Assembly: GCF_057098645.1 (NCBI RefSeq) | Contig: NZ_CM169472.1 | DNA: 64,000 nt | Strand: one strand, 5' to 3' | In this document: piece by piece, positions 9,001 to 15,000 of the stretch | How positions within the stretch are numbered: position 1 is the first letter of the stretch | How the letters are laid out: every line of letters starts with the position of its first letter | Made by a program: the position numbers

Positions 9001-12000
9001 GGACACCCGAATTTCTCGCGTGCATTAAAAAACGAATCAGCAACAACAGCTGGCTGCCGTGTTTTTCTTCAAAATCTTTTACCCCAGCGTGCAGTTCGTT
9101 ATGACATTTACGGCACAGCGGAATAACAAACAAATCATCAGCCTTTGTTCCCATCCCTCCCAGTCCATGACCAATGATGTGATGCGGATCATCTGCCTGA
9201 TTACCGCACGTCATGCATTTCTGCGTTTTTACCCAGCGCGTGTATACAGGCATCTCTTCCCGTTGTGGTTTCTGGCGCTGGAGATACTGAGCCGGTGACT
9301 CCGGATCAACGGCAATGCTGACCACCGTCTTTTCCTGTGGCGGGTTTTGCTGGTGGGCGTGAGGCAGCGGCGCAAGATTTTTTGTGCGCTGCTTCAGTAT
9401 GATGGTGGCGGTCTGCTCTCCCGGTACGATGTCGCTTTCACGGTACATTGAGCGGATTTTTTCCGCACGCAACCCCAGCGAACGACGTAATACCGCTTCC
9501 GGTAGCGCGTCCGCCACCTGATTGCGGACCGCCCACCAGGATAATTCAGCCAGAGATAATTCACGCTCCTGCGTACCGCTTATTGCGTGACCGATGACGT
9601 CAATCATCCATGCTGACAGGTTTTGATGAGCAAGTTGCTCGAGTGATTCGGATGTCTGGTCACGCAGCTGGTTGTCGCAGTGCCAGCACAACACCATTGC
9701 GCCGGTACCATAACGGTGAATAACGGTTTCACTGTGATGATAGTCACCATGAGGCCACTGGCAGGATTTGACATGACGCAACAGCCAGTCAGACAGTGCA
9801 CCAGCGCCACCAACAGCACGAATCACACGCTCATTGCTGAAAAACGGCAGTAATGATTTATCCTCCGCCAGCGGCTGGCGAACTGCAGGGACGATGCCGG
9901 ACGGCAGACCGCGCATGCTTTTCGGTTCCGGCTCCACAAGCACTCGAGGGTTATGGAATACCTGCATGGATTCACGGCCTGGTTTAAGGACCACCAACCC
10001 AAGTTCCGGTACCGGAACAGGTCGAAGTAATACCCGCACGTTACCTCCAGATGCGTTGCTGGAATGTGCGGGACGGACGCGGTGGGCGCTCGGAGTACGG
10101 CAGCCTGACGTAGATTATCCAGTGACGATAATCGAGGCTGAGGGCTTTCCTAAACTCATACCCACGTCTGCGGTAGTTCTGAATCAGCCATTCGGCCTGT
10201 TCTTCAGTGCATGGGGCGTGCCGGAACCAGTCAGATTTGAATGCATGAGAACGCCGCCCGTGCCTGCTGGCAAAGACGGCTGAATTATCAGAATTGTGTA
10301 GTCTGGAATTTTGCGCCATCGGCTTTCTCCGGTGGCACAGTGTTACTCAACAGGGGTTCAGCCCTGCGCTGAATTGTAGATGAATTCACTAATCTTCAAA
10401 AGCAGAAAAACCAGCCTTAATCCCAGCTTCTTTCAGAGACGGCAACGATGTGACAAATTCATTTGCACGCAAAATAAAACCATCCGTCACAAGCCCATCC
10501 ACAAAATGAATTAACGCAGCTCCACTCTTCCTTTGTTGAGACTGTAAACATTTAATACGGCAGTGGCTGACAATAGCGCCCTTCTCAACGCGCACAGTAT
10601 AGAGGCCATCTTCACTAAAAATTTCACGTAATTCTTCGATTCTCATCAACAGAATCCTTCCAGATAAATAGCACTCCCCTGTTCGGGGTCCATCCCTCTT
10701 CTCCCTGCGCGCTACTTAAGTATTTTTGATTCTATTCCGGCGCCGTCCGGAACTTCAAACGCGTTGAAAATAAAAACAAAAACCCGCCGAAGCGGGTTAA
10801 GTGCGGGTGCGTTGAGGATGCCTGACACATCAGAGGTGGCGAGGGATTTCTCCCCCGCCTGGTCTCTTACTCCTCAGGTTCGTAAGCTGTGAAGACAGCG
10901 ACCTCCGTCTGGCCGGTTCGGAGTCGTACCTCGCAGAGGTCTTTCCTCGTTACCAGTGCCGTCACTATGACGGTTAAACAGATGACGATCAGGGCGATTA
11001 ACATCGCCTTTTGCTGCTTCATAGCCTGCTTCTCCTTGACCTTTCGGTCCGTAAGAGTCAATCTATATGTGACGAGCATATAGGGGCCTCACTTCGATTT
11101 ATAGTCGGGTGGGGCTTTTATCTATCTGCCGTTGGTGTTCATGCCCGAGGCAGATAGCCTCAAGCACCCGCAGCAATCCTACTTAACTCTGCCGTTACAG
11201 CAAACCGTTTTCGCCCGATATGGGAATTCCCATATCGGAATGAATTCAGTTCACCTGGCGAGGCTTAGCGTACAATTTTTTCCGTTTTGTGAGCTGCCCC
11301 TACATGCCGCTGGCGCGGCATCCGGAAAAAGAATCCACGTCCTGAAGGACGAGGATGTCAAGTGCCTTTCCTGGTCCAGCCATATTTTTTGAATGCAGGC
11401 GCCGCTTCATCGGTTTGTAGCCATTCTGCAAATCGACGGGTTTCATCATTTGCATCCTGACGTACTGTAATGTTCATATCACGCCATATCACGTAGTCTG
11501 GCGCTATTTCCACGACATCACCAATTTCTGGATTACTGGCTGCCCAGTCAGCCCAGGTTATCCAGACATCTGCTCCAGGCTGATTCTCAAGAGCCTTACG
11601 TGCAGTTCCGCTATTGGGCGCATATAAAATAATATTTTTTCGGATTGCGGCGACAGTTTCTATATTCCCTTTACGTCCGGCAATATCTTCCCAGACGCCA
11701 GTGCCTGATGTATTACTGGTACCACCACCATCATTAACAATTACGCCAATCCCAGGTCTGGTCAGGTCGTCAATACTCCGGATATTTTTAGGATTACCTT
11801 TCTTTACCAGTAAAATACTTTTTCGCAGATAAAGAGGCTGAATATCTTTTTCACTGAAGCTGTCTTTATGGTCCCGAATGATAGCCAGAGCAGATTGTTC
11901 TGATGCGCCAAACAAGATATCTGCATTTTTTTTGGCATCTTCATTCCATTTGTTCTGTGGGCCGTAATGAACGTTCACTATAATACCTGTTTTTTCGGCA

Positions 12001-15000
12001 TAAAGTTTGGCTGCATCAAGCAAGGCTGTATGCGGGCCACCAGGACCATACAGATTGATATCAGCATAAGCAGCAGAAGACAGGAATATTAAAAAACCTG
12101 CCATTATGTTCCTCATAAAAAACTCCTTTTATTGGTTATCATGAAATAAAGTTATAAACACTACAAATAATATATATTACATCCAGATAAACTTATCCGA
12201 CTTTACCTCGTGCATAGCTTGTTATTTAAAGTCAACAAAATAAGGAAAATTATACGCATATTGAAGAGTATAAACCTTACATGTTGATTACATTTTTGTA
12301 ATCAACATCCTGTTTGGAATAGCCAGCCTTTAATGGATAACTATTTCTGACAATGCAATGAGTATAATCAAGTCCATCTTCCACTGAGAATTAGAGGCGG
12401 CATGCTTTTTCCGGCTCTTGCCGGATATCCGTAATTGTCCATAATCTGCAGATTTATACCTTCTGCATGACCTGTCAGCGAAAATTTGTCCGGTGTTTCT
12501 ACGGGAATGACATCAAAGTTACACGCACTCGCGTTACCGTGTAGACCTACTTTCCTGCACTTGCAAGATCACAGTGGTGTAACCGTAACAGGAATTTATT
12601 CTCTGGACCGGCAGTAAATCCCTGAGTGGCGTGGTTCCCATATCAATTTCCCGCCAGGCAGCCTCCATTGCCAGCGTACAGGCTGGAGCCATGACCTGCC
12701 CTTTAAATCTGGCCCGACCATCCCACCGGACGTGTTCTTCTCCCCTGAACTTAGGTACAGTCATCTCCAGTGGCACAAAAGTGTCAGCGCCATAATTTTT
12801 GACCGTTATCGCGCTACGGATATTTTGTTGACTGGTGAAAATCACCCCGCAGAATCAGGCTTATTCCCTTAACCTGGGCTTTCATCCTGACCGCCGCCTC
12901 ACTACGACCAATCAGACTGCCGATGCATTTTACCTTCATTGTTAGTATCATGATTTCAGGCCTGCACCATCCGCTCATTGCCCGGACTTCCGACAAATCC
13001 CGGCAACCATATCCCGGTGCTTGTTCAGCTCCCGCAGCGCGGCGCAGACTCGCTCCCACTTCTGGACATGATTCTTCGCCCTACGCAGTTCGCGATTTGC
13101 CATATGCAGCGATGGCAAAATCAAATCATCTTCTCGCGTTGCAGTAAACGATGGCAGCGACTGCACAATGTCCGCCACAGTTTCTGTTTTAATATCTTCC
13201 TGTGTTGCATCTTTCTGTACCGGTAACGCAACACCGACTGGCTGAGGAAAGGCTTTACCATCGGTTTCCGCTACCGATTCAACTTTCGGCTCTGCTGGTA
13301 AATTATCACCTGGTATGCAGTAACGAATTTTACCGTTCTGGTTTACGCGAATCAGACGACCTTTGCTGATTGCCATTGCCAGCGTTGAAGCAACTTTGCG
13401 GGATGTTGTACCGAACAGCGTAGCCAGTTCATCCGCCGTTTGTGGTCCGCGTTGTTCAATCGTCGCGGTTAAATCGCACTCTGAGATTTTCGCTTCTGTT
13501 GCCGTGGTGGTTTCTTCTGGCGCTGGCTGTTCCTGCTGAACGTTGTTATCAGCCACACGCCAGGTGTATACGCTTTTATCAACGAAGCCAGCCTTTTTCA
13601 GTTCCCACAGCTCGTTCAGTACTTCTTCACGACTGATATCAAGTCGCGCAGCCAGCTCTACCGACGTGGCTTTTCCCATCGCTTTCAGTGCGTCAAAAAC
13701 AGTCTCCATAAATTTCCTCCCGGTAAAAAATCACTTCTCAACTCAAACAAAACCAGCCGCTTTCCGGCGTTCATATTCCTGTTTCAGCAACTCAATTGGC
13801 GTTGGCCCCGACGGGCGTTTGGGGGCCGCCAGTTGTCGCCGGACTGGCGGAACGCTCAGGCCGTTACTAACATGCTTTGCCCATTTCGTCAGTTGCCGTT
13901 CTGCAAGCCGTTTTAATTCCCCTTCGGTCATCTGGCGCTCAATCCCCTTTGAACGCATCTCGAGGCAAATGTGATACAGCACAGGCTGAGACCACGGGTA
14001 CTTATCACTTCCGTCGTATCGCCAGGACTCATTGCGCCAGCGGCGGTACTCCTCCATCACAGCATCCACCGTCAGACCGAATGGATTGGCTCCGCTTTTC
14101 GAAATCAGTGCCACAAACTCAGCCAGGTCCGGAGGCCATGTTTCACCCGCCCGGCAGCGGTCCATGCACTGGCGGCAGACCTGCCGGATTTGCTGCTCAG
14201 TCATCGCGCCAATCTGTGCAATCCAGAGCTTCGATGGTGCGGCCCCGTTCTTCTGGGTCCAGCGGTTCGAATAAACCTCCCCCATGAGTTCCCACAGCTT
14301 CCAGGCCGTTTCCGTCGCTGATAAATCCGTTTTCACGTTCCCACTGCTCACGTGCTGCCCGAATTTCCTGAACTGCCCGTGATGCGGTGCCACCTGGTGC
14401 TGCTGCATGGTTTACCCCTTTGCTGACTGGTTTAACCTGCGCCCTGACGTGATTTACGTGACGGGCGAATTTCTGCTCCCACTGAATCTGCGTAAACACT
14501 TTCCCCTCCGCTGCCCAGTAGTCCCGGAAGGCGGCAAGTTCAGCAGGTGTAAATTCTGTCTCCGGCAAAGCCATCCCCCACAACGCAGCCCGTCGTCGAA
14601 AATCCCGTGACGGATACCAGCTATCGCTCATCGGGAATTTTCCGATGGGTTCGCTCAGGCCATACAGGAATACAGGGGGGGCTGCCTGTAACGACAAAAC
14701 TTCCTGCTCACTGGTCGGAGCACTCTCGCGTGCGTTATGTGTGGGGTTTAGATCTTTGGGTTCCTTTGGGTTCCGTGATCCGTTTTTGGGTGTCTTTGAT
14801 GGAAAATTTGGGTGTCTTTGGTTATTTTCCATGCAGCTAAGAGTTCTGTTTTTGGGTCTGTTTTGTGCTGAAACATAACCATTTTCGGTACTGTTTTTAT
14901 TAACAGCACCAATTTTACCCACCTTTAAAGACTCCCGTTTTTGGGTGTATTCAGGCTCGGCAACACTTTCTTCTACACCGATAAGTCGGTACACCACAAT

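Follow-up and report, generated by a model that had tools for sequence, protein, structure and literature searches.

The prophage-borne adherence gene paa (adfO) and a likely regulator-binding element conserved upstream of it

The open reading frame at 11358-12116 on the minus strand of the window, a 64,000-nucleotide stretch of contig NZ_CM169472.1 (assembly GCF_057098645.1), is paa (= adfO, z2053 in EDL933), an adherence and colonisation gene of EHEC and, more broadly, of attaching-effacing and enterotoxigenic E. coli that has already been named and published. The best explanation, to which we give a probability of roughly 85%, is that paa is carried by an OI-57/CP-933O-type lambdoid prophage at ompW as a moron with its own promoter and operator, encoding a protein that would bind a small anion. 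As the gene is already well known, the finding is ordinary. The new point is a small one: a conserved regulator-like site, located at the inner part of the palindrome, likely lies just upstream of the probable paa promoter, and no description of this element was found in the paa/adfO literature surveyed.

paa as cargo of a lambdoid prophage

The 252-amino-acid CDS was recovered by ORF call, in agreement with the sequence-only reading, and was identified by DNA identity to annotated genes together with PDB and Pfam matches. Over 1401 bp (positions 11200-12600), the window is 100% identical in nucleotides to paa-annotated loci of O145:H28 and 99.9% identical to O157:H7, and the gene table lists the CDS of the 100%-identical loci as WP_001449026.1, 'AcfC family adhesin Paa'. 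Likewise, the gene is labelled Paa or adherence factor in PPompW and Stx2a phage records, and 623 of 5426 complete E. coli genomes contain the paa sequence. According to the literature, adfO (z2053) and ckf (z2054) are always found together and are markers of OI-57/CP-933O, with ompW as the insertion site. The gene had been described as an orphan, a term that does not hold in the sense of uncharacterised. A Shine-Dalgarno sequence, AAGGAG (12123-12128, minus strand), can be read 6 nt 5' of the ATG, with AAGGA kept in plasmid copies.

Within the prophage, paa is located between P/DUF1627 and hokD...rusA-Q and is co-oriented with the cro-O-P...Q early-right operon. Its immediate downstream neighbour, annotated in the same orientation, is the hokD (ckf) toxin gene with its own sok/mok leader (10867-11169, minus strand), in which the Rfam model sok RF01794 matches at 11020-11169 on the minus strand with 95.6 bits. 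In K-12 Qin, relE-relB come after hokD, and Qin and the window cease to be homologous at 11036, shortly beyond hokD, which places paa in the relBE slot, as had been proposed. The gene forms part of a paa cassette of ~1.02 kb (11298-12320, minus strand) delimited by blastn, which is common to ETEC-type, other E. coli and E. albertii plasmids at 85-89% nucleotide identity. The GC content of the cassette is 41.3%, versus 50% for the window and 51% for its prophage part. The position between P and Q and the low GC content agree with the proposal that paa is carried as a moron. A promoter and a terminator are predicted within the cassette, which would be transcribed from that promoter. The survey of carriers and flanks that had been suggested returned ompW prophages with a hokD neighbour, and the same cassette on plasmids.

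Downstream of the gene, a consensus scan and folding identified a terminator-like hairpin, CGTCC-TTCA-GGACG with a U-rich tail (11338-11351, minus strand), 7 nt past the paa stop codon, which is not conserved in the aligned plasmid copies. A second hairpin, ATGCCGC-N4-GCGGCAT (11304-11321, minus strand), emerged from alignment and folding; across the four aligned copies its stem does not change, and variation is confined to the loop. Upstream of the gene, an AT-rich non-coding leader of ~415 nt had been described, of which only the 204 nt at 12117-12320 (26.5% GC) stand as such. These nucleotides are part of the cassette and are a likely H-NS target, whereas 12321-12533 (43.7% GC) falls within a fragment of a papH-like fimbrial gene that carries a frameshift. 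This pseudogene, an internal fragment of a fimbrial minor-subunit gene recognised by RefSeq annotation and homology (12318-12781, minus strand), abuts the cassette; RefSeq describes it as 'fimbrial protein, frameshifted; internal stop', and it is 85% identical to intact genes within pap-like chaperone-usher operons.

Fold and possible function of Paa

In a phmmer search against the PDB, Paa matched PEB3 over residues 11-248 (E=1.2e-81; 52.5% identity over 238 residues) and AcfC over residues 16-248, the whole mature length (E=3.5e-81), and the Pfam domain SBP_bac_11 matched residues 20-247 (E=6.4e-34). Because of the SBP_bac_11 match and the more than 50% identity to solved structures, Paa is assigned by homology to the type II periplasmic-binding-protein fold and to the PEB3/AcfC family; the profile search proposed earlier thus supports the fold. 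Residues 1-18 (12063-12116, minus strand) form a predicted Sec signal peptide, judged by inspection and hydropathy. The N-terminus, MRNIMAGFLIFLSSAAYA followed by DINLY, contains a single basic residue, a hydrophobic core with Kyte-Doolittle values of up to 2.8 and an A-Y-A cleavage motif, with no Cys. This n-h-c pattern therefore predicts a Sec/SPase I type peptide cleaved between AYA and D, not a lipoprotein, and bears out the clean signal peptide noted before. The mature chains of PEB3 and AcfC align with Paa from residue 19 on. Paa, PEB3 and AcfC share the motif SNTSGT without change; the next residue is G in Paa and PEB3 and A in AcfC, and VWED is kept in all three. We take the Ser/Thr/Gly-rich SNTSGTG loop at the inter-domain cleft to be an anion-binding loop in contact with the ligand.

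The N- and C-terminal segments of the protein had been likened to ModA. Weak ModA-family matches do occur where claimed (residues 18-55 at the N-terminus, 212-246 and 172-248 at the C-terminus), but the score for TIGR01256 is 18.3 bits against a cut-off of 62.5, with 17.7 against 470 for NF002920 and 11.7 against 253 for NF007958. Since the ModA, sulfate and thiosulfate models all stay far below their curated cut-offs and the true relatives are PEB3 and AcfC, Paa was rejected as a ModA, and its resemblance to ModA is, by these profile scores, weak superfamily similarity only. Annotation of identical DNA gives no modB/modC and no other permease or ATPase gene near paa, as had been observed, the neighbours being hokD and the fimbrial pseudogene among phage genes. 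Likewise, no ABC genes are annotated beside paa relatives at the eight plasmid copies and three ~40%-identical homologues inspected. Missing ABC partners are normal for the PEB3/AcfC family and not peculiar to the prophage copy. It is consequently most improbable that the gene encodes an uncharacterised ModA-like binder of molybdate or another oxyanion, new to science, that acts in scavenging or receptor masking and is dimer-regulated via a 28-bp palindrome. Such a reading can draw on the weak matches at both protein ends, on SBP_bac_11 being the same Pfam superfamily domain and on annotated modA genes reached by tblastn at ~25% identity. Yet those scores contrast with E=1e-81 for PEB3/AcfC, the gene has been named and studied, modBC is absent and conservation does not extend to the outer arms of the palindrome. 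Nothing was found in support of receptor masking.

Published roles within the family conflict, as Paa and PEB3 have been called adhesins, whereas AcfC is reported to be periplasmic and dispensable for cell adhesion. An adfO mutant showed reduced adherence to HeLa cells and secreted fewer proteins. AcfC binds sulfated glycans and has an effect on chemotaxis towards mucin; its role in colonisation was described in infant rabbits, and the recombinant protein bound heparin, chondroitin sulfate and mucin in ELISA. PEB3 has been described as a periplasmic transporter for 3-phosphoglycerate-type (phosphate-containing) metabolites. It is possible, though doubtful, that Paa is a true surface adhesin binding sulfated host glycans directly and not a periplasmic sensor or transport partner. 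The reduced adherence of paa and adfO mutants, the naming of Paa and PEB3 as adhesins and the ELISA binding of AcfC would fit such a role. However, the protein sequence carries a Sec signal only, with no lipobox, beta-barrel or autotransporter domain or cysteines, and no dedicated secretion gene lies near paa. In addition, AcfC was recovered in the periplasmic fraction and was not required for cell adhesion, PEB3 is regarded as part of a periplasmic transporter, and the loss of several secreted proteins in the adfO mutant points to an indirect effect. By analogy with these relatives, Paa would be exported to the periplasm and bind a small anionic ligand in the inter-domain cleft via the SNTSGTG loop. 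It may then aid adherence and colonisation indirectly, through sensing or through uptake via a non-ABC partner, instead of acting as a classical ABC substrate-binding protein.

The inverted repeat and the conserved upstream element

An unstranded inverted repeat was read from the sequence at 12281-12308, with two perfect 12-bp arms (ATGTTGATTACA at 12281-12292 and TGTAATCAACAT at 12297-12308) around a TTTT spacer. No second copy occurs in the window, where chance alone would give 0. It had been described as a perfect 28-bp palindrome; the coordinates and the perfect arms are right, but the TTTT spacer is not self-complementary. A 60-mer around the repeat occurs in 605 of the 5426 E. coli genomes (median 1 and maximum 2 places per genome), so that its carriers are about as many as the 623 carriers of paa. 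Among the matches listed, most places are annotated with the fimbrial pseudogene, as is the paa locus. A dispersed repeat of the REP, ERIC or MITE type was ruled out by the one copy in the window and the median of one per genome, and the palindrome is thus no common repetitive element. An intrinsic (Rho-independent) terminator was likewise rejected, as 4 of 12 pairs are G-C, the tails GUAAGGUUUAU and CCUGUUUGG contain no U-run and the repeat is absent from the terminator scan.

Conservation delimits a slightly different element. The candidate regulator-binding site TTACA-AAAA-TGTAAT-CAACA-TGTAAG (12276-12301, minus strand) lies 21 nt upstream of the predicted -10, and its core CAAAAATGTAAT shows no change across 8 independent upstream regions with otherwise unalignable flanks. 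Ahead of paa homologues, the pattern TTACA-N4-TGTAAT-N5-TGTAAG persists down to 67% identity, an 86% homologue included, and in those contexts a -10-like box follows at a fixed 21-22 nt downstream. The element was absent upstream of three homologues, from Salmonella Newport, Citrobacter and plasmid pUTAK18. In ~45 prophage copies, polymorphism avoids the element, but with only ~1.7 sites expected this carries no weight. The -10 hexamer, TATAAT (12249-12254, minus strand), is predicted from the conservation of this box alone, with no recognisable -35. It is invariant in six independent paa contexts, and in the homologues of 86% and 67% identity TACAAT or TATACT replaces it at the same distance. 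The consensus promoter scan missed this -10 because there is no -35, and a paa promoter at this position would for the same reason probably be activator-dependent.

On the upstream side, homology between contexts stops 3-23 nt past the palindrome in every case, beyond which lie the fimbrial fragment, a Tn3-family transposase fragment or other DNA; the downstream end varies. The conserved core, together with homology that always ends just past the element, suggests that the inner core with its third half-site is a candidate activator or operator site. It has also to be considered that the inverted repeat is structural, i.e., a hairpin that blocks or terminates read-through coming from upstream genes, or a hairpin-prone breakpoint at which recombination joined the cassette to new DNA time and again, and not a protein-binding site, which we regard as unlikely. 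Folding gave a hairpin of good stability for its size (-15 to -17 kcal/mol, z about -4.2 to -4.6), and the break in homology close to the repeat every time, with unrelated DNA beyond, would suit a breakpoint. However, the low share of G-C pairs, the lack of a U-tract on either strand and the silent terminator scan argue against a terminator, and no matching repeat is found at the other end of the cassette. In diverged homologues, the stem is down to 5-6 bp, whereas the sequences of the core and of a third TGTAA half-site, which is not palindromic, are kept at a fixed distance from the -10. As core and half-site outlast the shrinking stem, sequence-specific recognition fits better than structure. 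The repeat had been interpreted as a dimeric regulator site and not a terminator. It is indeed no terminator and its inner core is conserved, but the full 12-bp arms are not: their outer 6-7 bp differ between homologues with no sign of compensatory change. No selection on the perfect palindrome as such is therefore visible, and a long symmetric dimer site is not what selection kept. The 12-bp-arm palindrome may instead be a lineage-specific extension of the inner regulator site.

Within the element, TGTAAT-N5-TGTAAG has an 11-bp period, with the inverted TTACA besides. In Bacillus cereus, the same 20-base pattern precedes genes for a BceA-like ABC ATPase and a DedA protein, and it recurs in many Clostridia. 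A site for an OmpR/PhoB-type winged-helix response regulator, for example CpxR, would be expected to consist of GTAA-type half-sites in tandem, spaced by roughly a helical turn, ahead of a promoter that lacks a -35; the consensus sequences relevant here would be those of CpxR, WalR and BceR. If 12276-12301 is the regulator-binding site of the paa promoter, it could tentatively be speculated that it serves as an operator for a host regulator, most plausibly a CpxR/OmpR/KdpE-like winged-helix protein, and that an envelope or gut signal induces paa. Paa might then be a periplasmic sensor of sulfated or phosphorylated host anions that feeds into adherence or secretion, and not an adhesin. If true, this would be a mobile virulence cassette with a plug-in site for a core-genome signalling system.

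Comparison with known systems

The Paa/AdfO of porcine EPEC, ETEC and EHEC O157:H7 is the same gene, and the protein encoded here shows no difference. The O157:H7 prophage (z2053) also shares the context, i.e., integration at ompW and hokD/ckf as neighbour, although the strain of the window is nearest O145:H28 (PPompW) and not EDL933. Among solved structures, C. jejuni PEB3 (PDB 2HXW, 3FIR, 3FJ7, 3FJG, 3FJM) resembles Paa in length, signal-peptide position and the identical SNTSGTGVWED loop, while the residue preceding this loop is K in PEB3 chain 3FJG, E in 3FIR and T in Paa. The gene for PEB3 lies on the chromosome and the BumSR two-component system represses it, whereas Paa is found on mobile elements. 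V. cholerae AcfC (PDB 4JB7) matches Paa over its full mature length, with 47% identity given in the literature, and is a periplasmic colonisation factor on a horizontally acquired island that binds sulfated glycans. While acfC shares a transcript with acfB, a chemoreceptor-like gene controlled by ToxR/ToxT, and has an influence on chemotaxis, no chemoreceptor gene adjoins paa, which is a solitary gene with its own predicted promoter. ModA and Sbp/CysP of ABC importers belong to the same type II binding-protein superfamily, with weak local matches near the anion-binding loop and the termini, but Paa is shorter than Sbp and CysP and far from reaching the cut-offs of the ModA, Sbp and CysP families. 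Finally, the P-to-Q ('nin') morons, such as relBE-hokD of K-12 Qin, share slot, orientation and the character of autonomous cargo in a lambdoid prophage. The cargo of Qin is a toxin-antitoxin pair, whereas here it is a virulence-associated binding protein with a fimbrial gene remnant, next to a hokD that retains its own sok/mok leader.

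The paa gene and its place in the prophage

The 252-aa ORF at 11358-12116 on the minus strand, with a Shine-Dalgarno AAGGAG 6 nt 5' of its ATG read directly from the sequence, is the known gene paa (adfO) at its known place in an OI-57/PPompW-type lambdoid prophage at ompW. Over 11200-12600, the DNA matches O145:H28 genomes at 100% identity and O157:H7 at 99.9%, and the paa sequence is found in 623 of 5426 complete E. coli genomes, annotated as "paa: AcfC family adhesin Paa". In the literature, the gene is described as adfO (z2053) of O-island 57/prophage CP-933O, always accompanied by ckf (z2054, the adjoining hok gene), and an adfO mutant showed less adherence to HeLa cells and secreted fewer proteins. 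The DNA identity together with the published adfO therefore makes this an already known gene and a routine virulence marker for EHEC, EPEC, ETEC, E. albertii and OI-57, and re-finding it leaves the gene catalogue unchanged. The sequence-only reading, which had described an orphan secreted ModA-like protein, was largely right in what it observed and partly right in how it interpreted it.

The clean Sec signal peptide proposed for the ORF is borne out by inspection of the N-terminus (MRNIMAGFLIFLSSAAYA/DINLY), which combines a single basic residue with a hydrophobic core and an A-x-A cleavage motif and lacks cysteine; judged by these features, the signal is of the Sec/signal-peptidase-I type, not that of a lipoprotein. 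The best solved-structure matches are Campylobacter jejuni PEB3 (E=1.2e-81; 52.5% identity over 238 residues) and Vibrio cholerae AcfC (E=3.5e-81), covering the entire mature protein, and the Pfam match to SBP_bac_11 (E=6e-34) upholds the periplasmic binding protein fold. In PHROGs, the only match is the unannotated family phrog_11834. A resemblance to ModA at both termini does exist, yet it is trivial: ModA models match residues 18-55, 172-248 and 212-246 with only 12-18 bits where the cut-offs are 62-470, and the true relatives are PEB3 and AcfC. Sulfate-binding models match the central loop just as weakly, and membership of ModA, Sbp or CysP is ruled out by the curated cut-offs.

The window, which aligns to O145:H28 RM9872 at 99.9%, takes in the prophage from its head genes through the integrase next to ompW, and then the chromosomal stretch ompW-chaA. 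On the minus strand, the gene order is cro, O-like, P, DUF1627, a small ORF, a fimbrial pseudogene, paa, hokD, two small ORFs, DUF968, rusA and Q; this places paa among the cargo genes between P and Q, in the orientation of the early-right operon. The order in K-12 Qin is ydfT(Q)-ydfU-rem-hokD-relE-relB, and its homology to the window (9090-11036) ends just beyond hokD, which agrees with the earlier placement of paa in the slot that relBE occupies next to hokD. While Qin hokD lies directly behind relBE, the hokD (ckf) of the window, at 10867-11169, has its own full sok/mok-type leader, with a sok Rfam match of 95.6 bits at 11020-11169. Because paa and hok point the same way and only weak terminators separate them, transcription might conceivably continue from paa into the hok leader. 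The paa cassette and the sok/mok leader are separated by a 260-nt segment (11037-11297) that neither K-12 Qin nor the plasmid copies of paa possess; it contains a second perfect palindrome, CCGATATGGGAA/TTCCCATATCGG at 11215-11238 (24 bp without spacer), whose hairpin folds at -19.9 kcal/mol with z -4.5.

Several further features of the window were observed. The megablast alignment to RM9872 (L001 1269) begins only at 3468, so that 1-3467, the head-gene end of the prophage, differs from RM9872, and this difference suggests a mosaic late region. An inserted IS110-family ISEc20 transposase gene (~6185-7381) separates the small terminase gene from the prophage tRNA-Arg/tRNA-Ile (7497-7736), and the DicF sRNA (18286-18337, 76.7 bits) lies within the immunity/dicB region. 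At 47744-48016, Rfam gives one tRNA (47754-47835) followed by RtT RNA, where RM9872 has two tandem tRNA-Tyr genes and the window aligns as two overlapping pieces; on both grounds, the window strain appears to have one tRNA-Tyr repeat unit fewer.

The paa cassette and its upstream inverted repeat

Copies of paa carried on plasmids (an ETEC-type IncF plasmid that also has STa, a further E. coli plasmid and one from E. albertii) match the window only over 11298-12320, at 85-89% nucleotide identity. This ~1.02-kb cassette has a GC content of 41%, compared with 50% for the window, and its 204-nt leader only 26.5%. Of the ~415 nt earlier taken as AT-rich non-coding leader, only these 204 nt fit that description, as the rest, at 43.7% GC past 12320, is a fragment of a fimbrial gene. 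The fragment (12318-12781), identified by homology and in RefSeq, is an internal piece of a papH-like minor-subunit gene with both ends missing and a frameshift; the RefSeq annotation gives the frameshift and also an internal stop. Intact relatives at 85% identity belong to pap-like chaperone-usher operons, both on a plasmid and on the chromosome of strain PSUO2, there beside pgtABC.

When the prophage is compared with five plasmid contexts, upstream homology always stops 195-215 nt before the ATG, and the DNA past this junction is unrelated each time, being the fimbrial fragment in the prophage and a Tn3-family transposase fragment in ETEC-type plasmids (L002 5160-5444 and L182 1631-1876, adjoining the cassette where the prophage has the fimbrial fragment). 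The downstream end varies between contexts, from +742 to +1038. The junction falls 3-23 nt past the palindrome reported earlier at 12281-12308, which spans -165 to -192. Its coordinates and its arms hold (12281-12292 and 12297-12308; 12 nt each, 100% complementary), but the middle TTTT is not self-complementary, so the structure is a 12-4-12 inverted repeat and not a perfect 28-bp palindrome. Its sequence occurs once in the window and is not a chance expectation, it is stable as a hairpin by folding, and its outer arm positions vary among contexts without compensatory changes.

Several roles for the repeat were considered and rejected. Of 5426 genomes, 605 contain a 60-mer spanning it, once per genome and twice at most; this number is near that of the genomes with paa, and the one-copy distribution rules out a dispersed repeat element. 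As already supposed, it is not a terminator: four of the 12 pairs are G-C, there is no U-run on either strand, and it is absent from the terminator scan output. It could also be read as the 3' end of the fimbrial pseudogene, as the RefSeq line reaches ~12277; however, homology to intact papH-like genes ends at 12318, and the RefSeq overlap is therefore mere read-through to the next stop codon. Finally, as the terminal inverted repeat of a mobile cassette, it would have needed a counterpart, and there is no matching repeat at the downstream end, where the boundary differs among contexts.

A candidate regulator site and predicted paa promoter

The only novelty is modest: comparing the contexts gives the footprint of a candidate regulator site, which overlaps the inverted repeat. 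The conserved unit TTACA-N4-TGTAAT-N5-TGTAAG (12276-12301, minus strand) consists of an inverted pair and a third, direct half-site 11 bp on, and it is found upstream of the gene in 8 of the 11 independent prophage and plasmid contexts examined. Its core CAAAAATGTAAT is invariant across these eight, a set that extends to homologues at 86-87% (L005, L055) and 67% (L058) protein identity, in which the rest of the upstream region cannot be aligned. Some 21-22 nt downstream of the element is a -10-like hexamer, TATAAT in six contexts and TACAAT and TATACT in the two most diverged, and neither a promoter scan nor the context alignment found a recognisable -35. Such an arrangement would fit an activator-dependent (or operator-controlled) paa promoter, with its predicted -10 at 12249-12254 and a leader of ~125 nt. 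The element is absent upstream of three plasmid homologues, those of Salmonella, Citrobacter and pUTAK18; the Citrobacter plasmid (L007) carries what we take to be a Tn3-type terminal inverted repeat ~200 bp upstream of its paa homologue, which could be the reason for that copy being without the element. No polymorphism hits the element among 45 IMG/VR prophage copies, a sample too small to carry meaning. The footprint narrows the target of any reporter, pull-down or EMSA work to 26 bp.

Half-sites of the GTAA/TTAC kind, spaced by one turn of the helix, are characteristic of winged-helix response regulators, and the nearest E. coli consensus is that of CpxR, GTAA-N6-7-GTAA. Set against the consensus sites of CRP, FNR, IHF, TyrR, EvgA, PhoP, PmrA, ArcA, KdpE, RstA and CpxR, the element has no exact fit, and the nearest are presumably the CpxR site and KdpE/OmpR-type TTACA repeats. 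Scanning the genome collection with the 20-base pattern TTACAAAAATGTAATNNNNNTGTAA gave more than 120 matches; those listed came mainly from Clostridia and Bacillus, the remainder from a few further non-enteric genomes, and none of these 80 (L061-L140) was accompanied by a paa homologue. The pattern, TTACAAAAATGTAAT-N5-TGTAA (e.g., L062 5678-5702 and L063 1770-1794), often lies within longer conservation (CTTACAAAAATGTAAT-N5-TGTAAG...AATCGATGG...TATAAT). In Bacillus cereus, it precedes genes for a BceA-like ABC ATPase and a DedA-family protein, resembling operators of OmpR-family regulators of peptide-antibiotic detoxification modules, so that in Bacillus and Clostridia the pattern probably serves as the operator through which a response regulator controls peptide-antibiotic resistance modules. 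For the paa element, the scan yields a lead on the class of regulator protein, nothing more.

Possible function of Paa

No transporter genes adjoin paa, in agreement with the earlier remark that permease and ATPase genes were missing. Likewise, no annotated ABC neighbour accompanies any of eight plasmid copies or three ~40%-identical homologues (Agrobacterium, Acinetobacter and Paraburkholderia). Homologues on plasmids of Agrobacterium rubi (L013) and Paraburkholderia fungorum (L015) instead lie near genes for a LysR regulator, a TDT-family anion transporter and malate dehydrogenase, and these neighbours hint at a partnership of the wider family with organic-anion transporters outside the ABC class.

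As all inspected family members are orphan binding proteins, the "adhesin" label merits re-examination. Paa acting directly as a surface adhesin is a serious, though less likely, alternative. The best inference is that Paa may be a periplasmic receptor for a small host-derived anion, and its effect on adherence would then be indirect. Paa, PEB3 and AcfC have the SNTSGT loop segment and the following VWED motif in common, and the stretch separating the two differs in AcfC by a single substitution. In the literature, PEB3 figures as a transporter of 3-phosphoglycerate-type metabolites, and AcfC is described as a periplasmic protein that binds sulfated glycans, influences chemotaxis to mucin and was dispensable for cell adhesion.
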